A stretch of 62,985 nucleotides of DNA, the filler included, from Folioceros fuciformis (taxonomy: Eukaryota), in assembly GCA_049999805.1 (NCBI GenBank). It is 4 parts of 3 records of this genome, joined end to end, with 100 filler letters (N's around TTAATTAATTAA, not from the genome) between each part and the next. Parts side by side here need not be neighbours in the genome. Positions count along the whole stretch, not along the records: positions 49,860 to 57,005 come from JBNGIO010006367.1; 3 more parts are not named here. One strand, written 5' to 3'. This document shows, piece by piece, positions 9,601 to 62,985 of the stretch (position 1 is its first letter; every line of letters begins with the position of its first letter). A program made the position numbers and the translations under genes. The notes under the pieces were generated by a model that saw only the letters and a list, made by a program, of their open reading frames with translations, did no database searches and was not told where the DNA came from.

Positions 9601-9679
9601 AACTCCAGTGGCCAAAGCAAGGAAGGCGACGCCAGTGGCCAAAGCAAGGAAGGCGCTGAACAAAGTCGTTCAGCGCATG

Positions 9680-9945
9680 GCCCTGGAAATCACCTCCCCG
9701 GAAGGAGAAAAGTTTAAGCCCTGGATATCACCTCCCCGGAAGGAAAAAAGTTTAAGCCCTGGATATCACCTCCCTGGAAGGAAAAAAGTTTAAGCCCTGG
9801 ATATCACCTCCCCTGAAGGAAAAAAGTTTAAGCCCTGGATATCACCTCCCCGGAAGGGAAAAAGTTTAAGCCCTGGATATCACCTCCCCGGAAGGAAAAA
9901 AGTTTAAGCCCTGGATATCACCTCCCCGGAAGGGAAAACGTTTAA
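9680..9945. repeat. Minisatellite, 7 x 38 bp
   Basis: GCCCTGGATATCACCTCCCCGGAAGGAAAAAAGTTTAA units, head-to-tail, no spacers. Confidence 0.95.
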
Positions 9946-10048
9946 GGTGCTGGATGTGCAAAAGGATGGCAATAGGTTTCATGGGAAGATCACCGCTGGC
10001 ATGGGGAACCACCCTGTGGCAATGCACAGTCAACACAGATTTGGAGCA

Positions 10049-10136: not shown

Positions 10137-13100
10137 GAACCGGTTCTACGTGTCTCGAACAAAAACTGGTGGATTGTGCCAGCCCTGTAAAATGGGGTAG
10201 CCTCACCATGAGAGATAACACAGTGTACGCATCCGAGGGGGACTTGTTCTCCTCTCCTTGTGTTGAGGACGATGAGGATTCTGCGACTGTCTGGAATGAA
10301 GTACAAGCCGTTTTCTTTGGGGACGAAGGTAACACCTCCCCGTTAAATTCCTTGGAAAAGGACCCGATGCGGGTTAAGGAGGCGCAAGATGAGTATCCTC
10401 CTCCACGGCAGGAGGTTTCTTGCTTGCTAAGTGGCCAGGAGTTTAGGAAGGCAGAAGGTACAACAAGGAGGAAAGACAGACAGTTGGTGATCAAACTGAT
10501 GGTTATGAGAAAGGTGCAAGATTTTTATTCTTTTCTAGTTATGATAGGTGGCGGGGGGGGAGCAGCTGCCCCTTATCATTATAGTGCACAAGTTGCATGC
10601 TGGGCAGGAAAGGATATTTGAATACTTGGCCGCCGGAGGGGTTCCTGTCGGAAAGGATGGAAAGGAGGTGGAATTCTTTAGTGGTCTTTACCAGAAGGAT
10701 GGTCAATTTTTTGCCAGCATCTGGCTAAAACAAGTTTATGGACCCAGTATGCCACTTATCCCAGAGTGGAGGTGGTCCTTGGACGTGCCTTGGGCTAAAG
10801 ACAGGATATGGAATTCAGATATGGCTGTAGGGGATGCTGAGGGGCTTTTAGATGGTTGGGACAAGAGGAATGCTCCTACTGTTCGCAAATCTGAAAGGCT
10901 GCAAAGATTGTCCCTTCAGCTCAAAACAAAGGATCGTCTGGCGCGGCCCAAATCAGTGTCGGGGGCTAGGTTGCCCAAGCCCTCTGCTGTCCACAATCTC
11001 TCAAGCAAGTCCTACTAATGGGTATTGACACTTTGAGGAGCTATGAAAGGGGGTCTCACCTGCGGATCATTTCCTGGAATGTTAGGGGTTTGGGGGGATG
11101 GTCGAAGACAGCATCAAAGTGTAGACAACTAAAGAATCTACTAGAAGAGGAGGTCACTTGGGATTTTGTGTGCCTCCAAGAACATAAACTGTCTCCGGAG
11201 CAAATCCAGCGAGTGAAGAAGATCTTTCTTCCTGGTCGAACAAAATGGGCAGCAGCTAGAGCAGAGGATACAAGAGATGGAGAAAGGTCTTCTCAACGAG
11301 TTTTGGTGATCCGCGGAGGTGTGTCCATTACAGTGCACCCAGAGCAAACCCACAACATCCTGGAATCGGGGCAAGATGAGGAAGGGAGGTTTGTGTGGGT
11401 GGCGCTGCAAACTCCTTAAGGCCCAGTTGAAATCTACAATATTTATGCGCCTAATGCTGCCATGGACAGGAGTATCCTTTGGTGTAGGCTGGGGGATCAA
11501 CTTGATGAGCAGATCCCGTGGATGCTGGTTGGTGACTTCAATTTTGTTGAACGTTGTGAGGACATTCGAGGGGATAGCCCAGGAGATATTCGGGCGGTGC
11601 CTATGTCTTGGCAGGAGCTGAGAGACACGGTCTTGGCTGTGCAGGATCCTTGGGTAGCCCTCCTGGCTCATCACCAACCACAATCCTTGATGTTCAGCTA
11701 GTCCAATCAACAACAATAGAATTTGGGAGAGCGCAGGTTGGACAGGTTTTATTTACCCTCCGGGTGGTTGGCCTTTGTACAGTCATACAGTATTCTCGCT
11801 GGTACGATCCTTTCCAACCACCACCCTATTAGCTTGCACTTGGGGCTTGCTCCGGAGGTTGAGCGCCCAAGGAGGCATATGCAAAATTTTCAAATGAATA
11901 CATCCTTACTGAAGGAAAAAGGTGTCTTTGAAGATATAAAAAACATATGGCAGGGAGTTGAATAGGGGGAAGAAATGCGGCGGTCAAATTGATGTGTGCT
12001 AACAATGAGGCGACTAGGTATATGAGGAGACTAGGGGTTCAACGAGCACGAGAACAACGCCAGCAAGAACATTTTTTGAGGGAGGACCTATGCCGGTTAA
12101 AGAGGAGCTGCAAGGGCAGGGATCTCACAAATGCGGAAGAGGCCAGGAAAACGGAGGTGCAGTGCGCTTTGGCCAAGTTGGAAGAAGACAGGGCCAGTTG
12201 GTTTAAGCGTGCCAAAGTCAAGTGGGTGAGGGAGGGGGACGGCCTCTCTAAATTCTTCTTCGACAAGGTGGCCTCTAACCGACATAGAACGCAAATTCCT
12301 GCCCTTCCAGACGCGCGCGGAGTGGTACAAGAATCGCTTGAAGGCTTAAAAACTCTTATTACCCTCTTCTTTGTTGACATATTTTCCAGCGTTGGGAAGA
12401 TGGTAGGGTGGGAACGGCTTTGGTCTTCTTCTTATGGCACACTTACGGCTAAAGTGTCTGATGACTAGCGCATGGTTTTGGATAAGCCGATAACTGGTGA
12501 CAAGGTGTTCCAGGCCCTGAAGGGGATGCCGAGGGATAAATCCCCGGGTCATGATGGTATCCCTCCCAAGTTCCTGCTATGGGGGTCAGAATTTATGCAG
12601 CCATTATTTATGGAAGCGGTTAGTATGTTTTGGCAAGAAGGTAGCATGGGGAGTTGGTTCAACATAAGGGTTATCTCCCTACTCCCTAAGCAAGGTGCCA
12701 GCCTATAAACCTCCAATTGGCGCTCAATTACCTTGCTCACTACCACGTACGAGGTGATTGCTAAGGTATTGGCTAACCGAATTACACCCTTTCTTGATGA
12801 ATGGATTGAGAAAGAACAGCGAGGGTTTATTCAAAATATGTGCATCCTGGACAACCTACTACTCCTCAGGGAAGCAAAATTCTACACTCAAGTATAGAAG
12901 AAAGCCGTTGTTTTCATTTCCCTTGATTTTTACAAGGCTTATGATTCTGTTGAGTGGCATTTCCGATGGCGATGCCTGCGTAGCTTTGGTTTTGGGAATA
13001 ATTTCTGCATATGGATAGCCATTCTATGTGAAGACGCAGGAGCCAAGGTGGCTGTTAATGGGTCCTTTACATATCACTTTGGCATCTCTCGGTCGCTATG

Positions 13101-14067
13101 TTAGGGTTGCCCCCTTGCTCCGTTCTTATTTATCATCGTCACTAACTTCTTTCTTTGAGCAGTCAAGCAAGACCAGGCAGTGGTGGGAATTCGGAACCCA
13201 GATGGAATGTAGTTGAGGGTCTCTGCATTTGCAGATGATACTCTCCTCTTCTCTTCGGCTGAGGAGGCCTCATTGAAAGCGTTGCTCCAACAGGTCAAGG
13301 TCTTTGGCGAACTATCGGGCTGTAAGGTGAATTGGAGTAAGACACGCATGATGTGTCTTCACTTGGACGGGGAGACTCCTCAATGTATTAACCACATTAG
13401 GCGAGTGACTCAGAGTTCTACTCACAAGTATTTGGGGCTTCCGTTCCAAGAGGAGGATGAGAATGGGGAGATTGGGAAGTACGTCTACCTCAGGTTCATT
13501 TGCAAAGCGGCTAGTCTTTAGTTGCTGGAGCTCAATCTGGCAGGTAGGCTGGTGGTGATTAATCATATCCTTACTGCCTCTTTATGGTATTATCTGTTTT
13601 TATGGGCCCCTATTGAAATAACTTAGGATTATTTATATAACCACTCCTTAAGGTTAAATAGCTAGGGTTACCGAAAGGTCACTTAGAGAACAAGACATCT
13701 GTATATAAGATATTCTATTTGACCGCAATAATTATGATGTTTTATTTCCATGTTTTCTTAGTCTGCTGTCCCAGCGATTCTAAGCAAATTGACTTGGTAT
13801 CAGAGCACCAGGCTTTGATATCTGATCCTAATCTAATCTGCTTTGTGTTTCAAAATCTGATGTGGTAGATGCATGTAGTGCAAGGGCTGATTGGGCACAA
13901 AACCCAATAACCATTTCCCATGGCCCCTGGTTCATGTGACCGACAGTCCTTCACCACCTACATGACCACATTAGCTGTAGATCACAAATAAAAAGCAAAC
14001 TGTAAGGAAAAGACTTCCGCTGCACCACTGCTGGGTAGCATGCAGAGAGGGCACACGGAATTACAAA

Positions 14068-14556
14068 ATGCCTCGCAGGAACAGGCAACCGGGAAGTAGG
14101 AGCTATAACAACTTTATCACAGAGAGGTTCATTAGAGAAAGGGATCGCCTCCAACGGCGTGGCCTGCTCTCCAGAAGTTCCTCTGTTGATCCAATTCCCC
14201 CACGCCTGCATCCAGACTCGCGCCAGCAAACGGCCAGAAATAGACCGGCCAGAGCCAAGCATACCCTACACCCAAATAGGCCACATTCCATCAGGCCTGG
14301 TAACAACAATTGGAAGAAGGGCTGCACCCATCAAGTTCAGGAAGACGGTGATGCCCAGGCTGCCTCTCACTGTCATCTGCTGAGCGTGATTCCGCTTGTA
14401 ACCCCACCAATCGATCACCAAGACCTGCAGGCTATGCTATTCCGTCACACTACCAAAAATCAGACTTTGCAAGCACAAATCCTTCTAGACATCCAAGAAA
14501 TCAAGGCACAGATCAATACCCTAGCAGTACACCTGAAGGGCACTCTTGTTTTTTGA
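14068..14556 (+). CDS. Copia-1 extra ORF upstream of gag (Arg-rich N-terminus, C-terminal heptad region), function unknown
   Basis: 162-aa open frame with AAAATG start, between PBS and gag. A positional counterpart exists in Copia-2. Confidence 0.45.
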   Translation: MPRRNRQPGSRSYNNFITERFIRERDRLQRRGLLSRSSSVDPIPPRLHPDSRQQTARNRPARAKHTLHPNRPHSIRPGNNNWKKGCTHQVQEDGDAQAASHCHLLSVIPLVTPPIDHQDLQAMLFRHTTKNQTLQAQILLDIQEIKAQINTLAVHLKGTLVF

Positions 14557-19363: not shown

Positions 19364-19429
19364 CTAGAAGCTCCTCAGTGCAGACAGGTGGATGAAGCTC
19401 GACGGCTCTATCCAATCACCTGGCTTCAC

Positions 19430-19666
19430 TTAATCCGGCGGCATCTTCACCTCCAACGACAGGAGCAGTTTGATTTTCCATCCCGCTATGCTCAGTCCTT
19501 GCTCGGTGATGTCCTCCATGGCTATTTCTGCTTGCTCTGTTCGCTGTGGCGCAGCTCGTTGCCTTCTATTGGCCTTGATCTTCAGCTCATCCCGCCAGTG
19601 GCGCAACGGTAGGAAGACTGCGCTTGCTAGCGTACAGAGATTCACAGCTATTAGGATGACCGGCAT
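19430..19666 (-). CDS. Copia-1 antisense ORF in the 3' region with a hydrophobic N-terminus
   Basis: MPVILIAVNLCTLASAVFLPL followed by a charged segment. Same position and orientation as the antisense ORF of Copia-2. Confidence 0.35.
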   Translation of the reverse strand: MPVILIAVNLCTLASAVFLPLRHWRDELKIKANRRQRAAPQRTEQAEIAMEDITEQGLSIAGWKIKLLLSLEVKMPPD

Positions 19667-22378
19667 CGTTTTCAGTCTCGCGCTCGCTTCGCGCCTGTTG
19701 CCCGTTGCTAGTTAACCCCTCTTGTGGTTAAGGGGGTGTGTTGGAATAACTTAGGATTATTTATATAACCACTCCTTAGGGTTAAATAGCTACCGAAAGG
19801 TCACTTAGAGAACAAGACATATGTATATAAGATATTCTCTTTGACCGCAATAATTATGATGTTTTATTTCCATGTTTTCTTAGTCTGCTGTCCCAGCGAT
19901 TCTAAGCAAATTGACAGCCCCTTCCAAGCTAGAGGTGAAACGCTTACAACAAGTGTTGACCTTCTTCCTGTGGAAGCGTTCGGGGGATAGTATGGCTGGG
20001 TGTTCTAAAGTGGCTTGGCAGCATATTATTCAGGTGCGTGGTTTGGGGGGTCTTGGGGTGGTGGACCCGATTGCCAAGATGAAAGTGTTGCATGCTCAGT
20101 GAGTTATGAGGGCAGCGGATCCGACGTACTACCCTTGGAAGAGCCTTCTAACACAGCATCTGGACTGCGCCCAAGTTGTTCCTAGGGGAAGATCTATCGA
20201 CAACATTCTGGCTGACAAACCAATACTCGATACTGCAGAATGCTCCCCACTCTTCAAGTCCATCTGGAGCAGTTACTTGGAGGTTAAACAATATATTATC
20301 CCGGGTGACTTTTCTTGTGCGGATGATGTTCTTGGTATTCCTTTACAGGGATTCTCGAGGTTGTGGGTGCAGGAGTTCAGGTCAAGGGTATATCCGATAT
20401 GGTCACAAATTTTCGGGTTGGCTTGTCAGAGAGGTGTTATCCAACTTGGTCATTTATGGAATAGATCAAAGTCTCGTTGGAAGGAGGTAGAGGAGGTCAA
20501 AGGGGAGTTTGGATTAGGGGCTTGGCACGTCAAACTCATTTTCTTGTGGATGCACGAGGGGCTAGAGGAAAAGGTGCAACAGATCTTAAGGCAACAACCT
20601 ATCATAGGAGGTGAAGGGTGGTATGCATATTCCATGGATAGTAGGGGAGTCGACTCGGAGGAGGAGGATGAACAGGTGGAAGCATTAGAATTAGATAGGG
20701 CAGTCTGGCTTGCGAGAGCGGATGTCAAAGAGACGTTGAAATCGTTCAAGGTCATGTCGCCTGACAGAGTTTTGGAAGACCAAGGCAGGGATGACGGGGA
20801 AGCCCGAGGAGGGGATTTGCGGGCAATCATTGTCCTTGTTAAGTCCGTTCGGGCAGGGCGATAGTGCATCCCAAACGAACGCCCAATTGGGCCACAAACC
20901 TCCGATAAAGTAAAGGTTCATTGTTGGCTCCGATTGGGTGAGAACTGGGCTTTGACCTTCAAACCAGATCTCTACAAGTGGCCTAGGCATCCAGGGTGCA
21001 AGAAGGCTATCTCTCGATCTTTCTTCAACTTCCCAACGCTGGACTTGTTCCTTTGGTTGGTGCGAGCGCAGAAAATCAAGCAAAGACAACCAATGGCTCC
21101 CCGATTGTAGTTAGCTGGATGGCGACAAAGGGAAGCCATCAAACTTCTATGGAAGTCCGCAGGAATCCCCCCCAAGGTGAGGTCTACGGTCTGGTGTTTT
21201 TTTCAAGCGTGTTTGCCTAATGCGGATCGTTGGGATGGGCTTTTAGCTGCAACGGGGGAGGATGTGTGTCGACTATGCACCGCTGGGGGTCCCAAACAAG
21301 AGTCAACACATGTTCTTTGCCCAAGAGATCTGGAGGGAGGTGGGCAGGTGTCTTCGTTTGATTTTTCCTGGTGCTAACCTCATGATCATGACACAATCAG
21401 CCTTATTTGGGCTAGACGCAACCTCGGGCAAACCTCTCCTTAAAACACAATGGTGGGGCTTACTATGGTCTTCTTGCCTTTTTCATCTCTGGGTCAACTG
21501 GTCCACGGTGGTCTATGGAGGACAAGAATCAGCTTCATCGAAAGCTTTGTTATGGCGCATATGGGAGCATTCGTTGATTGTAGCAGAAGCTTTGGAGCAA
21601 TCCCGTTGGAAACAATTTAAGTGGAGTGACTGGAGGATGGCGGGATTCCTAGCACCTGGGAAAGATACTCGTTGGAATCATTCGTGCCCCTGGGGAAGGT
21701 GAGCCCTTAGGGTCCTTGGGAGACTTCGAGGTGTAAGTATAAGTGGCTTTGGCAGTTCGTGGGTACCATAGTGTAGGGAGCGCTCTCTGAGCGCCTTGTC
21801 TTGAGTTTTGGACTCAAGGCCAGTTCCCCCCCCTCTCTTTTGGTGCTTGATCTATGTGCATACGTTAGCATGTTTTTCCCTTTGTATTGTAGTGGGAGGC
21901 ATCTGCCAATCATAATCTGAATTCTTTTTTTCGTCCCGTATTCTCTCAACGAGCTTGCCTAACAGCTGTAAGCTTGTAAAATTGAAGCGTTTGCTTCCTT
22001 CAGACACCACAAAATCTCCTCCACTTGCATCCACACTTCTCAGAGTTGTAACTTGGCCTCTCAAATCCTCGATCGAGTCACATAATCTTGTACACTGCGC
22101 ACACGCACACCTCAACTGGATTTCCAACAAGAGAATGCTCCCTCAAGAGAAAGCCTATTCCCAAAAAGCAAGAGAATACAAGCTTACAATTGCAGCAGAC
22201 ACCACTGAGCCAGACTTTTATGCCTGCTACCTCAGACCTGCTGCAACCACATCCACACATCTAGTTGTGTGTCTATCTAGTTGACTTTATATTATATTTT
22301 CTAATCATCTCCACAAATAATTATTAATTACCACTGACACCATTTATTAGCATCACTTAATTATTAACTAATTACTAT

Positions 22379-24632: not shown

Positions 24633-24732
24633 NNNNNNNNNNNNNNNNNNNNNNNNNNNNNNNNNNNNNNNNNNNNTTAATTAATTAANNNNNNNNNNNN
24701 NNNNNNNNNNNNNNNNNNNNNNNNNNNNNNNN
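24633..24732. other. Artificial contig linker
   Basis: N run + TTAATTAATTAA (stops in all six frames) + N run. Confidence 0.98.
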
Positions 24733-49759: not shown

Positions 49760-49859
49760 NNNNNNNNNNNNNNNNNNNNNNNNNNNNNNNNNNNNNNNNN
49801 NNNTTAATTAATTAANNNNNNNNNNNNNNNNNNNNNNNNNNNNNNNNNNNNNNNNNNNN
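49760..49859. other. Artificial contig linker
   Basis: N run + TTAATTAATTAA + N run. Confidence 0.98.
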
Positions 49860-50263
49860 AGCTCCAGAGTTAGATCTGTTCCTCGGCATTTTCCCTATAA
49901 TAAAATCACCAGCGTATGGTGCTCTGATACCATAACTAAAATATAGCACGCTGGTATAACATCAAGATAGCTTGACATTCTGTGCATACAGCACAAAGGG
50001 GGCACGAAGTTGACCAGCACACGAAAACGTTGAGCAAGAAGAATGATGATATATATTAACAATTAATGAAGATGTATTTATACTAAATGTAGTCTATTAA
50101 CCCTAAATAATATGACCTAAAGGTAAGTAGGGATATTTAACCGTCGGGGTTATTAATCCAACACTCCCACTTAATCTCGACGGGTTAAAATCAGGGAAAT
50201 CCACTTATCCAAACATTTTTTTTTTTTTTTTTTTTTTTTTTTATTCCCGTTCCGCAATCCAGA

Positions 50264-50734
50264 ATGGAAGAAAATGGCATAAACAGCAATCCTGTTGCCT
50301 GGCTCGTATTGTCACTGCTGCTGCTAGAAGTCACGATCTTCACATTGCTTGCTGCGCCGTCGATTGTTGGCTGCTTCATCACCATGCCGCGGGCTATTAG
50401 ACATGGGTTATCCAGCCAAAGGTGCCCGCAAAGGAGGGATCTGGAAGAAGGATCTCAGGGTTCCAACAGACCCGAACCAGCGCGGAAGCTTTGGCCTACC
50501 ACTGCTCACAGGCGCACGCTGCTCAACCTAGCTAGGGCCGACGCTGAGTGCGAGGAACTGGGCAGACTGCTGGAGGAGGCCCAGGCACAAACTGCTCGAC
50601 TGAGGCAACAAGCTGAAGCTGGTGTGGAAACTAGGGACGATGACAGAGAGCTAACAGTGGAGGAGTACAGAGAGATGTTGAACGAGTTGGCTGCCCAAGG
50701 CTTGTACAATCCGCAGAAGGGAAAGGACACATAA
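50264..50734 (+). CDS. Copia-2 antisense ORF: N-terminal transmembrane helix plus coiled coil, 156 aa (partial second copy at 56680-57005)
   Basis: ATG start; PVAWLVLSLLLLEVTIFTLLAAPSIVGCFI, then RRTLLNLARADAECEELGRLLEEAQAQTARLRQQAE; lies between pol and the PPT. Confidence 0.6.
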   Translation: MEENGINSNPVAWLVLSLLLLEVTIFTLLAAPSIVGCFITMPRAIRHGLSSQRCPQRRDLEEGSQGSNRPEPARKLWPTTAHRRTLLNLARADAECEELGRLLEEAQAQTARLRQQAEAGVETRDDDRELTVEEYREMLNELAAQGLYNPQKGKDT

Positions 50735-51066
50735 CTCAAAAAAAAGTAAGAACTGTCTCCATGCCACAGGATTAGAACAGAGTGTTGCTTCATCCACTGA
50801 GGACACAAAGTGATGGCTGGGCTTGGCTAACCGAACTCCCACTGCAGGTGAACAGAGTCCTCAAGCTGGAAACGTGAGGACGTAGGAAGGCTAAGTCTGT
50901 TGCAAACTCTGTGGGTTTGCCCACCATGTAAGCACGCAATCATGCAGTAAAGCACTTGCTGAAATCTATGTGACCTGAAACCTCTACATGCGATTAATGT
51001 TTGTGTTTGGGCAGAGGTTTAGTGTTTTGGTTTCCAAAAACCAACAGGTTAGGTGTCACCTTGGAT

Positions 51067-54000
51067 TTACTTCACTCCTGTTCCTGGCAGTAAGTAGCTG
51101 AAATCTTGTATGCCAAGAGAATCCATGTGTTGTGAGTGCTTGAACTTTGGCAGAGCCTTCGTCATAATGTCTGCTACATTATCAGCAGTAGGGATATACT
51201 TGAATTGAATCACTCCTCGTGCTACTGTATCTCTAACATAGTGATGCTTAATTTCTATGTGCTTTGTCCGCGCATGAAAGCAGGGATTGGCCACGAGAGC
51301 AATTGCAGAGTTGTTGTCGCAATAGACAGTTGTTGGCTCAAGCTGCTCTAGATGAAGATCCTTGAGATAAGACCTCTCCCACTCAGCTTCTTTTGCTGTA
51401 TCTATCAGTGACATATATTCAGCCTCTGTTGATGATAATGCTATTGACGTTTGTTTCTTGCAGGACCAATTAACAGCTCCTCCAGCTAATAAGAAACAGT
51501 ATGTTGATAGGCTTTTACGTGAGTCAATATCAGAGGCCCAGTGTGCATCTGTATATGCAGAAAGAGATAGCCCAGAGGGGAGACCAGCTTGATAGAAAAT
51601 GCCATAGTGCATGGTGCCTTTCAAGTAGCGATATATGCCCTTCAGTGTTGCCCAATGAGCGCGGCCTGGTTTCTCCAGGAATTGTGAAACACTGCTGACG
51701 GAGAAGGCAATATCTGGCCGTGTCCAATTCGATATGAAAATCAGGCATCCAACAGCGTGTCTATAAGGTACCTTTTCCATATCAGAGATTTCCTCAGCAA
51801 TAGAAGCACATTGGTCGGCTATCAATTTTACTCCCACAGAACCTGGAGTGCTGACGGGTCTTGCTTGATCAAGCTGGAAACGCTTGAGGATTTCTGTTAG
51901 GTACTTTTTTTGGTGGATAACAATTAAACCCTTCTCTCTGTTGCGCAGAACTTGTACACCAAGACAGAACTGTAAGGCTCCCACATCCTTCATCACAAAC
52001 TTGGCTTGCAGGAGGTCCTTGACCTTGTCTAGAATAAAGGTGTTGGTGCAAGCAAAGATACAATCGTCAACGTACACAGCAAGGATACAAAATGCGGAGC
52101 CATCAACTAAGTAATACACAGATGAGTCAGCTGCACTTTGCACAAAACCTAGGGCCTTTAATTCTGCATCCAGTTTCTCGTTCCATAGCATAGCGCTTTG
52201 TTTAAGCCCGTATAAGGCTTTGAGCAACCTAAGTACCTTGTTAGGATAGCACTTGTCCACATAGCCTTGTGGCTGCTCTCCATGTATATTTCCTCCTTGA
52301 TCTCTCCATGCAAAAATGCTGTGCATACATCCATTTGATGTAGTTCCAGATTGAATTCGGCTGCAATGGCTAACAACATCCTTATGGACTGTGCCCTGAC
52401 GACAGGGGAGAAGGTCTCCTGGTAGTCCAAACCAGGAACCTGGGTAAAGCCCCGAGCACAAAGCCTGGCTTTGTACCTGACGATCTCGCCTTCAGCGTTC
52501 AATTTGGCCTTGAAAACCCATTTGCATGTAACAGCCTTCCGTCCGGGTGGCAAGTCTGTAAGTTCCCATGTCTTGTTTTTTAAAATAGAGTGGTATTCCT
52601 CCTCAACTGCAGCTTGCCATTTTTCTGCATCTGGACCAGCATAAGCAGCATCCATGGAAACAGGATCTAACAGCAGAGAGGAACTACCAGCAGTGGCAGC
52701 ACATGCAGATGGCCGAAAGTCATGGGATTCATAAGGAGGCTCAGCCCACTGTGAGCGAGGAAGACGAGAACGAGGTGGGTTACGTCTAGGAGGGACTATG
52801 ACGTAAGGGTCCTCCTCTGCGACTGGTGGGACGGGATCAACATCTGGCAGAGGGTGAACTTCAGGGGCTATGATGGGGTCAACATCCTGAACTGCAAAAT
52901 CTGTGTCATCTAGGGGATCCGGCAGGGCAGGATCAGCATCTGCAGGAGGATCATGAAGCTGATTGTTAACGGGAACTTGTGGATTAGCTGCAGGTGGATT
53001 TACAGGTACAACTGTAGGTTGCTGGATAGCAGGGACTGGACCTTGTGGAAACTGAATAGGTTGAGCATCAAAACCAATCAGATTAGGAGTGAAGTCTGCA
53101 TCATCTGAGGATTCAGAGTCTGTGTCAGCATGTACACCAGATTTGTTCGAAGAACCAGAATCTAATAGCTCTTTAAAAACAACACTGCGGGCTAAAACTA
53201 GAGCAGAGGTAAGTGGGTCAATCAGTTTATAAGCTTTTGCCTCCTCACTATACCCAATGAAAATTAAAGCTCTAGACCTGTCATCTAATTTTTGACGTTT
53301 GGCTTGTGGAATATAGGCAAAAGCTGGAGATCCAAAAACCCTGAGGTGAAGAATGCTCGGCTTACGGCCCCATATCATCTCATAAGGAGTCTTCCTTTGA
53401 AGAGAGCTGGTAAGAAGGCGGTTGAGAATGTATGTTGAAGTCACCAACGCCTCAGCCCAGTACTCTGCTGGTAAGCCAGCCCAGCTAAGCATACTCCTTG
53501 TCATGCCCATAAGTGTTTGATTTTTACGCTCCGCGACACCGTTTTGTTGTGGTGTGTAGGGAACGGTGAGCTGCCGAAGGATGCCTTGATCTTGAAGATA
53601 CTGATCAAATTGAGTGTTACAAAATTCTGTCCCATTGTCCGTGCGAATGCACTTGAGAAAACAGCCTGTCTACTTTTTTGCCATGGGCAGCCACTCCTGG
53701 AAACAGCTGAATGTGTCACTTTTCCTTGCAATTGGATATGTCCAAGTATAACGGCTAAAATCGTCGGTGATGGTCAGGTAATAGGAAGAGCCGCCAATGG
53801 ACTTAGTCTGCAACTTGCCAGAGATGTCAGAATGTATGAGATCAAGGACTGCTGAAGAACGAAAACTTGAATGCGGGAAAGGCTTCTCCCGCTATTTGGC
53901 CAACAAGCAGGCTTCACAAATCGGTAAGTCCTTGAAACAAGAGGGTAAAGATTCAGCGTAACAGTCTTCTGTAGACATCTTGACTAAAGTGTTTTTGTTG

Positions 54001-55514
54001 ACATGGCCGAGCCGAGCATGCCACAATTTAGCTTGTTCAGTTGCTGGAAGGTAGGCAAGAGTGGTTGCTGCAGCAACAGGCCCTGAGGTTGAAGCCTCAC
54101 ACAGCACATCCAGTCGATAGAGATCATAATCGGGAATGCCTCGACCAATGCATTGTGTAGCAGAGGCACGCCTGAAAATTTCACAAGTGGTGCCAAAGAA
54201 ACGAAACTCGAGGTTGAAATGTTGGGCAAGGAGTTTTACAGAAAGGAGATTTTTCGCCATTCCCGGCACATATAGAATTCCTGGAACATGCAAGACTGAG
54301 TTGTTAGTCATAATAAAACGGCAAGTACCATATCCCTTAATTGGTAAGCTTGTCGATTTTTGCTCGTCTCCAAGAAGAACTGATTGAGTAGAATTGTGAA
54401 TCTCCTTATAGTTGCTAAATAAATGCTTGTTCTTGCAGATATGCACAGTGGCGCCAGAATCCAAAAATCAGCTGCCAGGATCACTTGATGAAGAGGAAAG
54501 ACAGATGGTATATAGCTTAACCACAGCTTTGCCTCCTTCAGTCAAAGGTCTCTCCTTGGCAATAGAATTCACCTCTGGTTTAGGTCGACGAGGCTCGCCT
54601 GCCTTCTTGCGGCGATAGTCTCTCTCCCAGTGACCTGGTGTGTGGCACCAATTGCAGCTACCAGGTTTCTTTGTACTCGTGGAAGAGGATCCAGCAGTGG
54701 AGGTTTGGCTATTTTGTCGGCCTCTACCTCCTCTGCCTCTCCCCCTCCCAAAACCTCCATGCTGAGCAGAGGTATAAAGGACCCTGTTGGTTCGTAACTT
54801 TCCAGAACCGCTGGGGTTGAGTCGAAACCGGCTCTGCTCCTCTTGAAAGAGGGCAGCAATAACACTCTCAAGAGTGATGCCTGCTGCTTGACCAGCTGTC
54901 ACATTCTGGCCAGCAATAGCGAAAGGTCCATTCTGAAGGGAGACAAATGTTTGATATGATGCAGGCAAGGTGAGAAGAAAACGTACAATGGCATCCTCCT
55001 CAGACATCGTAGAGTTCAACTGAGCAAGGCGGGAGCGAAGGTAACGGAATTTGCTTGTGTGGGCAGCCACACTGTCACCCTCCCGCATCTTCAGAGTGTA
55101 GAACTCATGCATAGCTGCAGATTTTGAAAGCATTGTCTTCACGGCATATGTACCAGTAAGCTGATCCCATATGTCTTTTGCCTGCGTCAGGGACTCGACG
55201 TTAGGAATGATAACTTCATCTAACCCGTAGATAATGATGGCAACAGCCACACTGTTCAACGCATTCCACTTGTCGACATCAGCCTGAGTAACAGCAGTAG
55301 CTCCAGCTGGAGTAGCAGCTCTAGCAGCTGGAAGAACGGGTTCTGGATAGGTACCATCTACCACTGTCCAAACACCTCTAGCTCTTAGTGTAGTTTGCAT
55401 GCGAACACGCCAAATTTCAAAGTTTGTACCATTGAACCTATCTTTATCCTTGATTTCTGATGTGAAGGTTGGCGTGGCTGCCATGACTACTGGACTATAT
55501 GCAAGAGTTGACAT
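51067..55514 (-). pseudogene. Copia-2 gag-pol with three in-frame stops (54468, 53892, 53670) and one frameshift (~52280)
   Basis: DRFNGTNFEIW, CNWCHTPGHWERD, FLDSGAT, LWHARLGH, IRTDNG, QQNGVAER, QMDVCTAFL, VYVDD, EAEY, CDNNSAI, ADIMTK. Confidence 0.95.
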
Positions 55515-55756
55515 ACATGCTTGCCAAAACCCAAGGCTGAACAGGTCTGAACAGGTAAACAGTTACAGATCTAAAAAGTTTTTTTTTTTAGGGTTTCTAA
55601 TTCAGCAGAAAACTTAAGCTAACCTGCTGACTTTCTATCTAGGGCTTGTGAGATCAGAAAAACGGTTAATAACCGCCTGTCATGTGGCAGCGGAAGGTTC
55701 ATATGAAAAAGGCCTCTACAACGCAAGATCCCTAGACAAGAACAGAGGATATCAAA

Positions 55757-56305
55757 TCAATCGAAGTGCTCCTCATTAGAGGAGCGAAGGGTCTTGTTCA
55801 AGATCTGTAATTGCCTGGTCAGTCTGCCAACTTCTGAAGAAAACTTGGTGACAATTGTGTGGATTTTCAGATCTGTTGAGTCTAGCCGTTTGGAAAAGGA
55901 CTCCTGACGCTGAACTGCAGCATTCAATGTACCCTCCAGGTCTTGTAGCCTGGGCTGAAAATCCAGAAATGTGTCTGATGAGGTACTGGTGGTCTTCGTG
56001 CAGGATTGTAGGGGTAAGGTAGGACGTCTCAAGAATGGTCTGCCAGCAGATTGATCTGAATTGAAAACTCTGCCACAAGTATCACAAGATTTGAATGTAG
56101 CAGATTTCTTTGTTGAACGCCTAGAATCACAGCGATTCTGACAATTCCGATAATTCTCCAAAATTCTGAGATCACGTTCTGCCTTAGATTCAGCCTCAAA
56201 CCAAGGGACGCTTGAAGGGGCAGATACTCTGCCAATAGGTCGTGAGAAAGCTTTAACAAAACCTCCTCTACCTCCAGCTCCAGAGTTAGATCTGTTCCTC
56301 GGCAT
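55757..56305 (-). CDS. Copia-2 extra ORF upstream of gag, 182 aa (basic/Gly N-terminus, Cys pairs, C-terminal coiled coil)
   Basis: AAAATG about 30 nt after the PBS; MPRNRSNSGAGGRGG..CQNRC..CDTC..RLQDLEGTLNAAVQRQESFSKRLDSTDLKI..VGRLTRQLQILNKTL. Confidence 0.55.
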   Translation of the reverse strand: MPRNRSNSGAGGRGGFVKAFSRPIGRVSAPSSVPWFEAESKAERDLRILENYRNCQNRCDSRRSTKKSATFKSCDTCGRVFNSDQSAGRPFLRRPTLPLQSCTKTTSTSSDTFLDFQPRLQDLEGTLNAAVQRQESFSKRLDSTDLKIHTIVTKFSSEVGRLTRQLQILNKTLRSSNEEHFD

Positions 56306-57005
56306 TTTCCCTATAATAAAATCACCAGCGTATGGTGCTCTGATACCATAACTAAAATATAGCACGCTGGTATAACATCAAGATAGCTTGACATTCTGTG
56401 CATACAGCACAAAGGGGGCACGAAGTTGACCAGCACACGAAAACGTTGAGCAAGAAGAATGATGATATATATTAACAATTAATGAAGATGTATTTATACT
56501 AAATGTAGTCTATTAACCCTAAATAATATGACCTAAAGGTAAGTAGGGATATTTAACCGTCGGGGTTATTAATCCAACACTCCCACTTAATCTCGACGGG
56601 TTAAAATCAGGGAAATCCACTTATCCAAACATTTTTTTTTTTTTTTTTTTTTTTTTTTATTCCCGTTCCGCAATCCAGAATGGAAGAAAATGGCATAAAC
56701 AGCAATCCTGTTGCCTGGCTCGTATTGTCACTGCTGCTGCTAGAAGTCACGATCTTCACATTGCTTGCTGCGCCGTCGATTGTTGGCTGCTTCATCACCA
56801 TGCCGCGGGCTATTAGACATGGGTTATCCAGCCAAAGGTGCCCGCAAAGGAGGGATCTGGAAGAAGGATCTCAGGGTTCCAACAGACCCGAACCAGCGCG
56901 GAAGCTTTGGCCTACCACTGCTCACAGGCGCACGCTGCTCAACCTAGCTAGGGCCGACGCTGAGTGCGAGGAACTGGGCAGACTGCTGGAGGAGGCCCAG
57001 GCACA

Positions 57006-57105
57006 NNNNNNNNNNNNNNNNNNNNNNNNNNNNNNNNNNNNNNNNNNNNTTAATTAATTAANNNNNNNNNNNNNNNNNNNNNNNNNNNNNNNNNNNNNNN
57101 NNNNN
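57006..57105. other. Artificial contig linker
   Basis: N run + TTAATTAATTAA + N run. Confidence 0.98.
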
Positions 57106-60100
57106 GTTAACTAACCTAATGACTGGACCTATTTAAGTTATTTACTGTTTCACTCCCACTCAGGAGTTAGGCTAGTTATATAGTTTTAATAACTATCCTA
57201 AAGCATGCGTTCTAAGAAACTTCACCTAAACAAAAACTTCTAAGAAACTTGACGCTAAAAAAAGAACGTTATCCTCTTCAACGGGACCCTAAAAATCAAA
57301 AAAAGTCTTCAGTCTTCTCCTTCGCTGTCGCGTCCGTCCAAGTCGCCGCCGCCGTGTGTGGCTGAGCTTTGCGAGCTGCCTGCCGGGCATGGCTTCGCCC
57401 TACCTGCCGGCAACGCCCGCGTGAAGGTGCCGCCGCCTGCTTGTGATGACCGCCCGATGCTGCCGCCAGCTGGAGATCGCCGCACGACGCCGCCGCCTGA
57501 TGGAGATGGCCGCCCGACTCCATTTCTAGCTGCTGCCAGTTCTGTTGAGCTGGATTCGCCATCGCCAGGTGAGCTTGAACCGGGGGCGGATGCGCCAGCT
57601 GTGCGCGAGCTAGGAATGTCCACGCCAGCTGCTGATCCACTCCAGATTGACTTACCTGATGCTGACCGCAATCCCATGCCGAAAGCGTGCTGTTGATGCT
57701 TGGCCTTGCTCAAGGCCTTAGTTAGAACATCTGCCGTCATCAGATCTATAGGGCAGTAGACAACTTGAACCATTCCGCTTGCAACTTGTTCTCTAATAAA
57801 GTGATGCTGTACCTCCAGGTGTTTGGTTCGAGCATGGAAGCGAGGATTCTCAGATAGTGCTATGGCACTTTGATTATCGCACATCAACCTCAGAGGTAAC
57901 TGCTGTGGAGCTCCCAACTCTGCGAGTGCTCCCACTGCCCATATAACTTCCTTACAAGCTTCAGTTAGGGATTTGTATTCAGCCTCCGTGGAGGATAGGG
58001 CCACTGTTGGCTGACGTTTGCTGCACCAGGAAATTGCACTGCCAGCTAAAAGGAATACATAACTGGAAATGGAGCGTCTACTGTCCTGGTTCCCTGCCCA
58101 ATCAGCGTCGCTGAAGGCTGTAAGAGTAAGAGCTTCAGGTGCATCAGCACTGTAGAGTAAGCCCCAGTCCTCAGTGGCCTTTATATACCTGAACAGCCTT
58201 CGCATGGCATGCCAATGAGCCATTGCTGGATTTGCTAGAAATTGTGATAGCATGCCAACAGTAAATGCAAGGTCTGGACGGGTTCCAAGCATGAGATACA
58301 TCACGCTGCCACTGAGGGATGCATATGGGAACTCAGCCATGAGGTATTCTTCTTCAGCAGTGAGTTCAGCTTCTCCCACTTCTGCCTTATATTTCACATT
58401 CTGCTCAAGCGGGGTTGAGACTGGTTTACAGTCAGTCATTTTAAATCGTGCTAGGATTTGTCTGATGTACTTACTCTGATGCATAAAGATTCTTTGTCTC
58501 TTTCTATCTCTATTTATCTGCATGCCCAGGCAGAAGGCGAGGGCTCCGGCATCCGTCATCCTGAATTCTGACCGCAGCTGGTCTTTCAACTCTTCAATCA
58601 TGCTCCAGCTGTTAGACATAATTATGATATCATCTACGTAGATGGCCAGGGCCAAAAAATTCTTTCCTTTGCCTCTTTTGATGTAGACATTGCTATCAGC
58701 ATGCAATGGCATGTAGCCATGTGAGACTAGAAAATTATGGATGCGTGCAAACCATGCACGTGGACTTTGCTTGAGTCCGTAGAGTGTTTTCTTCAATTTG
58801 CAGACATACTGATGTTTGTCATCTTGTGCTATAAGGCCAGCTGGAGGTTCCATGTATATTTCTTCATTCAGCTGACCATACAAGAAGGCCGTTGTCACAT
58901 CCAGTTGTTCTAATTCGTAGTCGTGGACTGCTGACAAGGCCAGGAAGAGTCTAAGTGTACTCATCTTCACTACCGGACTAAAGGTGTCCGTGTAGTCTAC
59001 TCCAGCAACTTGGGAGTAGCCTTTGGCTACTACTCTGCCCTTGTAACGTTCTATGCTTCCATCAGATTTCAGTTTAACCTTGAAAACCCATTTGCTGCCC
59101 ACAGCTTTCCTTCCGGGTGGCAGCTGAGTAAGTTGCCAGGTTTCATTCTCCTTGAGGGAATTCAACTCCGATGCAATGGCCTTCCTCCAATGATCAGCAT
59201 CTGGACATGAGAGGGCTTCCTCATACGTTTGAGGCTCAAAATGCTCTGCAGATGCTGCCAAACAGTAAGTCAAGTTTGACTTGGAATGATCTGCCTTTTT
59301 AGGATGCCTCCAATCATGGACCTTGTAAAGGTCAATCTTCCCTGCAGTGGACCTCACAGGTCTCTCCCTTGGTGGAGTTGGAAAACTAACAATCTTTTTC
59401 TTCTTGCGCTGCAGAATTCCAGGATTGGACACATTTTGATAGCTTGAAGGTGTAGCAAACAAGTCCCCAGGTGAGACCACTCCTTCCATATCGAAATCGC
59501 CAAATATTATGGGCTCATCCTCACTCTGCGATGGCCTGATTGGTGTTTGAATGCTTGGCGTGGAAGGTATTTGTTGTACAGCTGGTACTACTACTGGTGG
59601 GATTGGTGCTGGTGCTGCAGGCACTGGGTCTGCTAGCACATAAGAGTCTTCTTCTTGCTCTTCGTCTGACCCTTGAGGTGAGTCAGGGACAGCAACTCCC
59701 ACTGAGTCATGTGACTCAACGCCTTCTACAAAAATAACATCTCTTGAGTGCATTACTCTTTTGGTACGTCTGTCTATTACCTTGTACCCTTTTATGCCAT
59801 TTGTGAATCCAATGAATATGCATGAGGTTGACTTAGGCTCAAACTTCTTTCTCAGGTCCTTGTGTACATGCACATACACTGGAGCTCCAAACACTCTCAT
59901 GTGGGAAATGTCAGGTTTTACTCCAGTCCACACTTCAAATGGTGTTTTGCCTTGTACAGCTGAATGCTCTATCCGGTTTTGAATGTAAGTAGCATACGCG
60001 ACTGCCTCAGCCCAATAACATTTGGGAAGTTTCGCATATGACAGCATGCTAGATGCTGAAGTTTCCAAGGCCTTGTTTTTATTTTCTGCAACTCCGTTTT

Positions 60101-62985
60101 GCTGAGGAGTTCTAGCATTGGTTAGCTGTCTAGCTATACCATGCTGTGTGCAGTAGGCTTGGAACTCACCGGATATATATTCTCCCCCATTGTCTGATCG
60201 GAGAGCTTGCAATGATTGTTCAGTTTGTGTTTCTGCCCACGCCTTATACTCCTTGAAGCATTCCAGGGTGGAAGACTTTAGCCGCATGTGGTAGACAACA
60301 GTGAACCTTGAGAAATCATCAATGAAGGTAATAAAATAAATTTTGCCTCCAAGAGAAGTGGGAAGTGGCCCACACACATCGCTGTGTACCAGCCCGAGCA
60401 CTCTGGTGGCTCTCTCAGCTGGTTCAGTTGGGAATGCACTGCGGTGATGCTTCCCAATGACACATGCATCGCATACTCCGAAATCGGACAATGTATCCAA
60501 CTTCAGACCATCTACAAGCTTATTTTGATGCATTCTGACTAGCTTTTGGAAGTTCAAATGTCCTAGCCTAAGGTGCCACAAGTATGTGAGCGATGGCCTG
60601 ACCATGTGAGCTGTGCTTGTTGCAGCGGTAACATGATCCTTCTTCACATCCAGATGGTAGAGGTCATCAGATCGCAAACCTCCAGTGGCCATCAGTTTAC
60701 CATCTAGTGTTTCTACTACACATCTCCTACCACCAAAGCAGATGTAACATCCAGATTCGTCAATCTTCCTCACCGATACCAGGTTTTTGGCAAGCCCTGG
60801 TACGTATAAAACATCTGGTATCTCCAGATGTTGATCTGGTTCCAAATCAAGCTGAATTGTTCCATGACCTTCTATCTTATGTGTAGAGTCATCTCCTAAG
60901 CAGACAAATCTCTCACCTTCCATGGGCTGCAGGCTAGTGAAGTAAGAGTGATGCGGTGTCATATGCTGCGAGGCCCCCGAATCTATGTACCACGCATGTT
61001 GTGCCTTGGTTGCAAAACAGGTAACCACCAATGCTGAATCGCTTCCTGCATGTGTACTTCGATCTGGCCCATCATTTACACATGCTGTGAACGCTTTAGA
61101 ATATTTTTTCATAGTGACAGCCAGATTGCCACCTGAATGGCTGCGTCCTGACTCATTTGCCAACCTCTTCCTGCAGACCTCCCATGTGTGATTTGGTATG
61201 CCACAAAATCCACATGGTGCTTTGGGTCTGCTGCCATTGAATGAGGAAGGTCGGGATGGGAAGCCTCGACCTCGTCCCCTGCCTCTAAAGGCAGGTCTGC
61301 CTCTGCCTCTACCTCTGCCACCTCCAAACTTATTGGTGAACAGGGCTTTGTCTCCTGCCGATATGGAGGATGTCGCCATCTTGCGGCGGTTCTCCTCAGT
61401 GAGCATTGTGGAAATCACGCGGTTAACCGTGATTGCTGCTACGTTTTGCAGGGACTGCACAACATTTGTCCAACTTTCAGGCAGGTGAGACAGTAGAATG
61501 ACTGCCATCACTTCTTCTTCAAGCTTGAAACCTAGTGCTAGGAATTTGGTCTGCCAGCTCCTCCATGTGAGCACAAATTCTGCTACATTGTCGGTTTCAG
61601 CCATTCTTAACCCCACAAAGGACTTTAGTGTGTGGGTCTTTAGAATGAGGTCTGATGCATCGTACACCTCTAACAATTGTTGCCACAATGCAGCTGCAGA
61701 TGTGATGGACCCCATCAAAGTGGCAATGTGTGAGCTCTTTACGCTCATGGTGAGAGTGCTTCGTGCTTGCTGATTCGAAGCCTTCCATGCTGCAATGTCG
61801 GCGGATGCAGCAGTTGTTGGTGGTTCAGGTGTTGGAATTGCTGCACCGACGAACTCCCACAGGTTCCTTGACTTCAACAACTCTTCCATTCTAAACTTCC
61901 ATAGGTTGAAGTTAGTGCCATCAAATCTGTCCTCTTTGGCTAGGGCAGTCGGCACATTTGATTGTTGACCTTGACCTGCCATGACACTGGGATGGACTGG
62001 ATGGACACACTAAATTGGGTGAAACCAGACCTTGCAGGAGGAATCTTTGTCTAATGGGCCCTCTACTTCTAGGGTGACTTCAAGATTGATCATTTCAGCA
62101 AAACAGTACTCAGAATGGATTTTATGAATTATATAACATGCATAGGTGTAGACGTAGTTGAGAGTTGGTGACAATGGTTGCTGTTTAAAAAGGGTGTCTA
62201 GCTTAAATAGGATGACCTGAAAAACGTGATCAGGTGTTGAAGGAAGGTTGATGACAAACTTGGAGACAGAAGGGGGAGACATCTTCACTTCACAGGTAGA
62301 TATCTGAAATGTCAACTTGGGTCCAATCGTAGTCCTCCCCTGCAGGAACTCCTTGTACTAGGTTTGTCGCCATCAGCTCTAGGATTATGCAAAGTCTAAT
62401 CCAAACTTGCTGCCATCTGTTTCCATGCGACAGCGATTCTTGATACTCTCTCTCAGACCTCCAATAGTAGGCAGCTCTTGCTGCCTCTCTTATTGCACGC
62501 CTGAGCAGGCGCTCTCTTCTCCGTGATCCAGGCATGGTGCACAAGGAACCTGCACTACATTCCTCCAAGAAGGGCTCCTAGAGTTCATCTGTGTGCTAAT
62601 TCTTGTGCTCCACTTGCAGGTTCTACATAAAGAAGAGAAGAGCTTCTGCTGGCGTGCTCTGTCCAAGAGAAGATCAAAACTTTGCTACGATCAGTCCTCC
62701 TTGGGAGAGCAGCATTTGTGCAGCATCTCCCAAACCCCTGCAGGCGCACCCATTGGCCAACGTAAATTAATCAAAAAAAAAACAAGAGACCCGAATTCCG
62801 AGATGGAAATAGGATTCTTGCAGGTGGTGCGATTGCAAACGGGGCAGGCTACTCGATCCATGGCTCCGATACCATGAGACGATTTTTTTTATTGCGAGTG
62901 CTCGAACGCACCTTGTGTGTGTTCAGGACTCCGTGAACGGTTACAACGACATTACCTGTCGTGTTAGGGTTTCGTCTTAATTAAG
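57106..62985 (-). mobile_element. Ty1/Copia element (Copia-3), internal region complete, both LTRs partial
   Basis: The 5' LTR ends ..GTCTCA at 62875, followed by PBS TGGTATCGGAGCCA (62861-62874). PPT GAGTGGGAG (57153-57161) is followed by the LTR start TGAAAC at 57152. Confidence 0.93.
57309..61982 (-). CDS. Intact Copia gag-pol polyprotein, 1557 aa
   Basis: Single ORF: DRFDGTNFNLW, CGFCGIPNHTWEVC, WYIDSGAS, LWHLRLGH, VHSDVCG/LRSDNGGEY/QQNGVAE, YVDD, FSDADWAG/EAEY/CDNQSAI/ADVLTK. Confidence 0.97.
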   Translation of the reverse strand: MAGQGQQSNVPTALAKEDRFDGTNFNLWKFRMEELLKSRNLWEFVGAAIPTPEPPTTAASADIAAWKASNQQARSTLTMSVKSSHIATLMGSITSAAALWQQLLEVYDASDLILKTHTLKSFVGLRMAETDNVAEFVLTWRSWQTKFLALGFKLEEEVMAVILLSHLPESWTNVVQSLQNVAAITVNRVISTMLTEENRRKMATSSISAGDKALFTNKFGGGRGRGRGRPAFRGRGRGRGFPSRPSSFNGSRPKAPCGFCGIPNHTWEVCRKRLANESGRSHSGGNLAVTMKKYSKAFTACVNDGPDRSTHAGSDSALVVTCFATKAQHAWYIDSGASQHMTPHHSYFTSLQPMEGERFVCLGDDSTHKIEGHGTIQLDLEPDQHLEIPDVLYVPGLAKNLVSVRKIDESGCYICFGGRRCVVETLDGKLMATGGLRSDDLYHLDVKKDHVTAATSTAHMVRPSLTYLWHLRLGHLNFQKLVRMHQNKLVDGLKLDTLSDFGVCDACVIGKHHRSAFPTEPAERATRVLGLVHSDVCGPLPTSLGGKIYFITFIDDFSRFTVVYHMRLKSSTLECFKEYKAWAETQTEQSLQALRSDNGGEYISGEFQAYCTQHGIARQLTNARTPQQNGVAENKNKALETSASSMLSYAKLPKCYWAEAVAYATYIQNRIEHSAVQGKTPFEVWTGVKPDISHMRVFGAPVYVHVHKDLRKKFEPKSTSCIFIGFTNGIKGYKVIDRRTKRVMHSRDVIFVEGVESHDSVGVAVPDSPQGSDEEQEEDSYVLADPVPAAPAPIPPVVVPAVQQIPSTPSIQTPIRPSQSEDEPIIFGDFDMEGVVSPGDLFATPSSYQNVSNPGILQRKKKKIVSFPTPPRERPVRSTAGKIDLYKVHDWRHPKKADHSKSNLTYCLAASAEHFEPQTYEEALSCPDADHWRKAIASELNSLKENETWQLTQLPPGRKAVGSKWVFKVKLKSDGSIERYKGRVVAKGYSQVAGVDYTDTFSPVVKMSTLRLFLALSAVHDYELEQLDVTTAFLYGQLNEEIYMEPPAGLIAQDDKHQYVCKLKKTLYGLKQSPRAWFARIHNFLVSHGYMPLHADSNVYIKRGKGKNFLALAIYVDDIIIMSNSWSMIEELKDQLRSEFRMTDAGALAFCLGMQINRDRKRQRIFMHQSKYIRQILARFKMTDCKPVSTPLEQNVKYKAEVGEAELTAEEEYLMAEFPYASLSGSVMYLMLGTRPDLAFTVGMLSQFLANPAMAHWHAMRRLFRYIKATEDWGLLYSADAPEALTLTAFSDADWAGNQDSRRSISSYVFLLAGSAISWCSKRQPTVALSSTEAEYKSLTEACKEVIWAVGALAELGAPQQLPLRLMCDNQSAIALSENPRFHARTKHLEVQHHFIREQVASGMVQVVYCPIDLMTADVLTKALSKAKHQQHAFGMGLRSASGKSIWSGSAAGVDIPSSRTAGASAPGSSSPGDGESSSTELAAARNGVGRPSPSGGGVVRRSPAGGSIGRSSQAGGGTFTRALPAGRAKPCPAGSSQSSATHGGGDLDGRDSEGED

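Follow-up and report, generated by a model that had tools for sequence, protein, structure and literature searches.

The antisense open reading frames (ORFs) close to the 3' LTR of plant Ty3/gypsy retrotransposons have been puzzling for a long time, and they have functional counterparts in retroviruses. In Tat/Retand elements of Ty3/gypsy they are found between pol and the 3' LTR, e.g., gene23 of maize Grande, the antisense ORFs of rice RIRE2 and Silene Retand, and ORF2 of bean PvRetro13, and their function is unknown (PMC7264820, PMC4093653). The antisense ORF of Grande has a promoter of its own, which was demonstrated (PMC7264820), and Transposase_28 is present in 57 of 104 antisense ORFs of Retand elements (PMC11963269). 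In bean, all 15 families with an antisense ORF2 are Ty3/gypsy, and both Copia families with an extra ORF carry a sense, env-like one (PMC4093653). The sequence-only reading of the locus described here had placed antisense 3' ORFs mainly in Gypsy/Tat elements and sense env-like ORFs in SIRE-type Copia, in agreement with these accounts, in which Ty1/copia figures only with the sense env-like ORFs of SIRE (PMC7264820, PMC4093653). For Ty1/copia, Neumann et al. set a minimum of 250 codons and reported extra ORFs from 582 elements, which fall into 45 groups and four classes of position and orientation (PMC6317226). These ORFs are highly heterogeneous and were possibly acquired many times: those of SIRE elements (eORF-3'F) alone make up 19 groups without mutual similarity, and heterogeneity without similarity within a lineage is the rule for the extra ORFs of plant LTR elements (PMC6317226). 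Our full-text searches brought up no paper with an antisense ORF in a Copia; the supplements of the survey by Neumann et al., with the eORF classes per Copia lineage, may record the eORF-3'R class (PMC6317226).

The DNA analysed (hereafter the window) is a stretch of 62,985 nucleotides from Folioceros fuciformis. It consists of four contigs joined by N44-TTAATTAATTAA-N44 linkers (24633-24732, 49760-49859 and 57006-57105). Among its host ORFs are those for a PPR protein, a class-3 lipase, a PAP2 and a metallophosphatase, which, with a primer binding site of the initiator tRNA-Met type, suggest a land plant. A 38-nt unit is repeated in tandem at 9642-9984 (seven overlapping copies of 115 nt reported), within a region whose long ORFs have no Pfam match. 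On the last contig, a third Copia, from another lineage, has a single gag-pol ORF of 1557 aa without interruption (57309-61982, minus strand), with a low-complexity, G+C-rich extension at its C-terminus; the contig stops about 200 nt past this ORF, so that the 3' spacer is out of view. The 7146-nt third contig (49860-57005) carries an element, Copia-2, whose Pfam domains lie on the minus strand in the order Retrotran_gag_2, Pol_BBD, gag_pre-integrs, SH3_retrovirus and RVT_2. This is the gene order of Ty1/copia, with a reverse transcriptase (RT) of the RVT_2 type. On the other strand, at 50264-50734 (+), between the pol stop and the LTR, we confirmed an ORF of 156 aa (P0001) that runs uninterrupted from ATG to stop, opposite to gag-pol, as had been claimed.

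The 156-aa ORF has the place and the orientation of the plant aORF-3R, or eORF-3'R, and like them it has no clear relatives in databases (PMC7264820, PMC4093653); at 156 codons it is shorter than the minimum of 250 codons used in the survey of extra ORFs (PMC6317226). The known aORF-3R elements belong instead to Ty3/gypsy, and their spacers measure 2.9-6.6 kb and their ORFs 211-939 aa (PMC11963269, PMC4093653), whereas Copia-2 is Ty1/copia and its spacer is 0.9 kb long. Most Retand ORFs contain Transposase_28, whereas P0001 has no Pfam domain and Transposase_28 itself (PF04195) gave no Pfam match in it at E<=1. Furthermore, the ORF2s resemble one another from one bean family to the next (PMC4093653), whereas the ORF of Copia-2 is unlike that of Copia-1, the other Copia compared here. 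The env-like ORF of SIRE/Sirevirus elements (eORF-3'F) is comparable in that the element is a Copia and the extra ORF lies past pol and has a predicted transmembrane segment and helices. In contrast, it is in sense orientation and about 380-390 aa long in bean, within elements of about 10 kb that have LTRs of about 1.7 kb (PMC4093653), while the ORF of Copia-2 is antisense, in a repeat unit of 6.4 kb with an LTR of about 230 nt. The likeness to HBZ of HTLV-1 and ASP of HIV-1 is one of analogy only, i.e., a minus-strand ORF near the 3' LTR that would be transcribed from the LTR, and Pfam gave no sequence or domain relation between P0001 and these retroviral antisense proteins. HBZ is a helical zipper protein, and ASP is a hydrophobic protein associated with membranes. 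An antisense promoter of HTLV is cited in PMC7264820. Finally, gene transduction of the Bs1 type resembles this case in that foreign, host-like coding sequence occupies the internal region, in one or few copies (PMC7264820); unlike transduced gene fragments, the 156-aa ORF is complete and has no donor among the protein and contig collections searched.

The anatomy of Copia-2 can be followed along the minus strand. The primer binding site (PBS) TGGTATCAGAGC, which we take to be the complement of the 3' end of the initiator tRNA-Met, is found at 49921-49932 and again at 56337-56348. The leader between PBS and gag contains a sense ORF of 182 aa (ORF0, 55757-56305). Then follow gag (55514-54468), the protease and pre-integrase (54467-53895), the integrase/SH3 region together with RVT_2 up to its position 100 (53669-52161), and the remainder of RVT_2 with RNase H (52491-51070), up to the pol stop at 51069-51067. 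A spacer of 903 nt (50164-51066) separates this stop from the edge of the LTR. It has no Rfam match and no tandem repeat besides a homopolymer, and it ends with the polypurine tract (PPT)-like TTAAGTGGGAG (50164-50174), immediately ahead of TGTTGG. At the junction TTAAGTGGGAG / TGTTGGATTAA, 19 of 22 positions agree with the 3' junction of Copia-1, TTAAGGGGGTG / TGTTGGAATAA (19728-19749). The single LTR (49933-50163, about 231 nt, with an inferred boundary) ends at the PBS; its start could reach 50180, or 50214 after the A27 tract, and under every one of these placements (50163, 50180, 50214) the ATG of the 156-aa ORF (50264) is 50-101 nt internal to the LTR. The sequence-only reading had the ORF begin about 100 nt from the LTR edge, and this distance holds: the ATG is 101 nt internal to the inferred edge at 50163, with the ORF outside the LTR.

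The homopolymer of the spacer is a T27 tract on the plus strand, i.e., A27 on the sense strand of the element (50216-50242). On that strand the LTR edge is 52 nt further downstream, and on the plus strand the tract precedes the ATG of the 156-aa ORF by 22 nt. We considered the insertion of a retroposon as its origin and rejected it: there is no target-site duplication longer than 7 nt and no Rfam family, and the homopolymer is the only repeat. A run of eight A is also found on the plus strand at 50738-50745, 3 nt past the stop of the ORF.

The LTR itself has to be described differently from the earlier account, which took it for the 3' LTR. The contig begins and ends with 730 nt that are 100% identical (49860-50589 and 56276-57005), this overlap holds the PBS and the sequences that flank the LTR on both sides, and the PBS sits "downstream" of the supposed 3' LTR. 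Because of these identical ends, and of a PBS beyond the supposed 3' LTR, the contig is a circular permutation of one unit of 6416 nt, with one LTR and one internal region, and the "3' LTR" is not an independent LTR. The contig could be a tandem array, a 1-LTR circle or an assembly loop, and is not a provirus with two independent LTRs. The PBS and the PPT-like motif are present, while any second LTR and target-site duplication are hidden by the permutation. Since the contig ends share 730 identical nt, the 156-aa ORF is also seen twice: its second appearance (56680-57005, +) is truncated by the contig end and is not an independent copy. Caution is in order with such contigs, where a circular permutation can make one LTR look like two.

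The coding region of the element is damaged. The gag-pol of Copia-2 (51067-55514, minus strand) is in one frame save for a break in RT, placed by the Pfam coordinates between 52274 and 52290, and it contains three in-frame stops: a TGA at the junction of gag and protease, and two TAG in the integrase, where Pfam reported no rve core at E<=0.001 and where the two stops lie. The word intact, used in the earlier account, is thus right for the ORF and wrong for the element that carries it. Contigs made from public reads differ from the window by 2 nt in length at 52276, throughout the depth found there, and for this reason the RT break may be limited to this copy or come from the assembly. By our arithmetic, four lesions in about 4.45 kb of gag-pol imply that a neutral stretch of 471 nt stays open about two thirds of the times. 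The intact 471-nt frame is therefore no sign of selection.

Two DNA runs of one sample, among the six runs listed, cover the stretch (shares of 0.89 and 0.74). In each of them the 156-aa ORF is covered by one unitig, 50145-50686 at a depth of 10.2 and 50255-50686 at a depth of 13.2, and the depths of other element-specific unitigs range from 6.7 to 31. The first of these unitigs carries the junction from LTR to ORF with one substitution and no indel. The sole difference between window and reads inside the ORF is a C>T at 50357, which in our reading of the frame changes Pro32 to Ser, and a 1-nt length variant occurs at 50738, 4 nt past the stop. Neither of the two DNA runs yielded another spacer that had diverged while staying at least 85% alike, and the Copia-2 family is low-copy in the public reads. 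Over 49860-57005, run X3 shows 325 C>T and 139 G>A, a large excess relative to X1 and X2 from the same sample and a pattern of the bisulfite type.

The frame of the ORF is free of stops for 181 codons (50189-50731). The two other plus-strand frames have about six stops each over the same stretch, and the same frame has nine in the 110 codons that follow its stop. The ATG lies in the context AGAATGG, with A at -3 and G at +4. The hydrophobic helix of about 30 residues noted in the sequence-only reading was recovered at residues ~10-42: the Kyte-Doolittle mean over 19 residues reaches 2.39, and AlphaFold2 (AF2) predicts helices at 10-30 (pLDDT 80-86) and 32-39. Run without an alignment, AF2 gave a mean pLDDT of 70.2 and a pTM of 0.30, with residues 38-66 below 50, and added helices at 80-120 (pLDDT 89-96) and 132-144. 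The predicted layout is thus a hydrophobic helix (~10-42), a basic disordered linker (43-79), a long helix (80-120) and a short one (132-144); the first nine residues are acidic and five Arg lie within residues 43-58. The same reading had also seen a clear heptad region. This did not withstand a crude register test: residues 80-120 are predicted as one long helix, but the best register has strong hydrophobics at 33% of the a/d positions, a value equalled by 1002 of 2000 shuffles. On the sense strand of the spacer, the longest candidate gene has 100 aa, is rich in Ser and Leu, and has codon scores below 98% of the nulls; we rejected it, and it reads as a shadow of the plus-strand frame.

Searches for relatives of P0001 covered protein families, protein clusters and contigs. 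No Pfam family rose above threshold (best score 15.1 bits, for a cut-off of 27.8), and a word-seeded search of 5.8 billion clusters returned 251 candidates, none of them at E<=0.01. HMMER gave a single match among 1.84 billion representatives (E 2.4e-6), to a tandem-repeat product of 672 aa matched in ten short stretches, which we judged spurious. Pattern matches to the ORF were obtained in metagenome contigs (512), viral contigs (16) and prokaryote contigs (409), of which none was confirmed, and Rfam found no family in the ORF region. The ESM Atlas provided no usable match for P0001. Its recognition value of 1775 (91 of 100 proteins of known families reach 2300) is not informative, because ORF0, whose length is reached by none of 2000 shuffles, scores 1635. 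A query with RT-RNase H in metagenome contigs yielded three loci from 47 candidate stretches, at 27-38% identity, which is too distant; the one with a 3' flank (L001) has there only a 50-aa antisense ORF and serves as a single unrelated control.

We then compared the ORF with chance expectations, using null models that are less patchy than real DNA. Dinucleotide shuffling of the 903-nt spacer gave an antisense-strand ORF of at least 156 aa 6 times in 2000; when an ORF on either strand was counted, in an 825-nt version, the figure was 30 in 2000. The three-base periodicity of the ORF (chi-square 14.9) was reached by 12 of 400 stop-free Markov nulls, and by 8 of 300 in the first version of this null. 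The two tests are independent by construction, the null for periodicity being conditioned on an open frame. The length is, by itself, weak evidence, because 47 stretches of 150 or more codons without a stop occur in the window, several of them with similar periodicity. The composition of the codon positions of the ORF (G1 0.35, T1 0.13, A2 0.30, G3 0.35) resembles that of the four host genes of the window (G1 0.34, T1 0.20, A2 0.28, G3 0.33) and not that of the element's own gag-pol: G3 is 0.22 in the TE genes, and GC3 is 0.59 in the ORF against 0.40-0.42 in gag-pol. The codon-usage score was matched or exceeded by 31 of 400 nulls under a host model and by 288 of 400 under a TE model, and is not distinct from the nulls under the TE and combined models; the usage is not TE-like, and host-like to a weak degree. 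This likelihood has low power and is uninformative, because the nulls and the real genes excluded from training alike score about 0. Taken together, the sequence statistics lean, by a modest amount, to real or recently real coding sequence.

The sequence-only reading had drawn support from a second element, Copia-1, and most of what it said of this element holds. Copia-1 is on a different contig (the first one, plus strand, separated by the linker at 24633-24732), and its RT shares PVSTPGSVGVKL..PYRHAVGCL with that of Copia-2. It has a 5' LTR (13595/13611-13794), a PBS (13797), a pol stop at 19363 and, after a spacer of 360-375 nt, a 3' LTR (19723/19739-19916). Fragments of a reverse transcriptase of the non-LTR type (RVT_1) are found immediately upstream of its 5' LTR (12472-13521, plus strand). 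Between pol stop and 3' LTR lies the reported antisense ORF of 78 aa (P0002, 19430-19666, minus strand). Its start is 57-73 nt away from the 3' LTR, and a hydrophobic segment (Kyte-Doolittle 2.35) comes first in the protein. An ORF of at least 78 aa is present in 63 of 2000 shuffles of this spacer. The region of the ORF is strongly 3-periodic, to an extent reached by none of 400 nulls. However, the pol frame of Copia-1 is open for 83 codons past its stop (19364-19612, +) and is the codon-aligned complement of the 78-aa ORF, so that the openness and the periodicity of the antisense frame have a rival cause.

The absence of obvious similarity between the two antisense proteins was borne out (BLASTP E 0.85, with the local score reached by 431 of 1000 shuffles and the global score by 134 of 1000). 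The two spacers share nothing by blastn or tblastx, and no homologue of P0002 was found. The elements themselves are 46% identical in gag (81/178), 46% in RT (92/200) and 55% in RNase H (108/197). The ORF of Copia-1 is therefore a positional counterpart only: it shares the position and the hydrophobic start, between elements 46-55% identical in gag and pol, which leaves the claim of a trait of the whole lineage unsupported.

What, then, is the 156-aa ORF? Our preferred answer, held tentatively and with somewhat less than even confidence, is a family-specific extra antisense gene of the eORF-3'R type in one low-copy Ty1/copia family. The Copia-2 family would have acquired it secondarily, rather than inherited it from the ancestor of the lineage, because Copia-1, though related, carries at this place a sequence of another kind. 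Transcription of the plus strand would come from the side of the LTR, which holds TATAAATA at 50082-50075; the plus strand reads there TATTTATA (50075-50082), and the ATG follows at a distance of about 180 nt, with only one upstream ATG, opening a frame of 2 codons, between the two. The encoded protein would be small and cross the membrane once. Under the positive-inside rule, its acidic N-terminus of nine residues would be lumenal or outside, and the basic linker and the long charged helix would be cytosolic. Such a protein might modulate its own element, by membrane tethering or dosage control, a speculative role suggested by analogy with retroviral antisense proteins and the aORF-3R of gypsy elements; also speculatively, the antisense RNA could pair with the 3' end of the genomic RNA. 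Backward transcription from the 3' LTR and a membrane-anchored accessory protein are thus, as when first proposed, matters of inference. If this is true, a small, compact Copia with an antisense gene for a membrane protein would mean that this layout arises independently in both superfamilies, and it would offer a short and tractable case for testing what antisense extra genes do.

An alternative is a frame that is open by chance in a non-coding spacer and makes no protein, any function of the region being that of a cis-acting RNA or DNA (PPT region, 3' UTR) or, at most, of non-coding antisense transcription. We regard this as only slightly less probable than the extra gene. The ORF is an orphan in every search (Pfam, clusters, representatives, contigs and Atlas), shares nothing conserved with Copia-1 despite the 46-55% identity in gag and pol, scores like the nulls in codon usage (TE and combined models), and has heptads no better than those of shuffles; moreover, it was picked after the fact from 63 kb that hold 47 stop-free stretches of at least 150 codons. 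A hydrophobic start followed by a helix-prone stretch of E/A/Q/L/R is common in translated G+A-rich DNA. What such a frame accounts for less well is that length (6/2000) and periodicity (12/400) are each unusual while being independent by construction, that the composition of the codon positions matches host genes, and that only the frame of the ORF is open, the neighbouring frames and its own continuation being full of stops. In another explanation, a piece of host or foreign coding sequence was captured in reverse transcription or recombination, as in Bs1, and persists as a relic useless to the element. It would account for the third-position and overall composition, host-like and unlike gag-pol, for a codon score better under the host model (31/400) than under the TE model (288/400), and for a spacer of 903 nt compared with ~360-375 nt in Copia-1, without similarity between them. 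The low, single-variant read cover (one unitig, depth 10-13, compared with 16-31 in other unitigs specific to the element) fits it as well, and so does the position of A27, on the sense strand at the LTR-proximal end of an insert-like segment, as for a captured poly(A) tail. Yet A27 is on the strand opposite the ORF, and a captured polyadenylated RNA would therefore be antisense to it; the ORF is complete, having a start and a stop that belong to it; and the segment is flanked by no target-site duplication (7-mers only). No donor or homologue was found among 1.84 billion representatives, which one would not expect of a land-plant gene other than an orphan. We consider such a capture unlikely, and the small probability left goes to other explanations. 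Should the frame be a product of chance or a passenger, the lesson would be one of caution, since open frames in G+A-rich spacers easily yield the position, the hydrophobic start and the helix-prone tail.

The two elements also carry sense ORFs in their leaders, between PBS and gag: 182 aa in Copia-2 (ORF0, P0003; 55757-56305, minus strand) and 162 aa in Copia-1 (14068-14556, plus strand). Both start with MPR..NR and there is no similarity between them; no homologue of P0003 was found, with an Atlas recognition of 1635. Both Copias thus have a leader sense ORF and a spacer antisense ORF, and extra frames at both ends therefore recur in the group. One could imagine that this plant Copia group is "complex", each family having a leader sense ORF0 and a small antisense membrane protein transcribed from the LTR, as for HBZ of HTLV-1 and ASP of HIV-1, with accessory genes whose turnover is so fast, or whose replacement is so frequent, that all that related families still have in common is where these genes lie and how they are laid out (hydrophobic N-terminus, basic stretch, acidic helix). 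We find this scenario improbable. As for the leader ORFs, shuffling of the leaders produced an ORF of such length in none of 2000 cases for Copia-2 and in 27 of 2000 for Copia-1.
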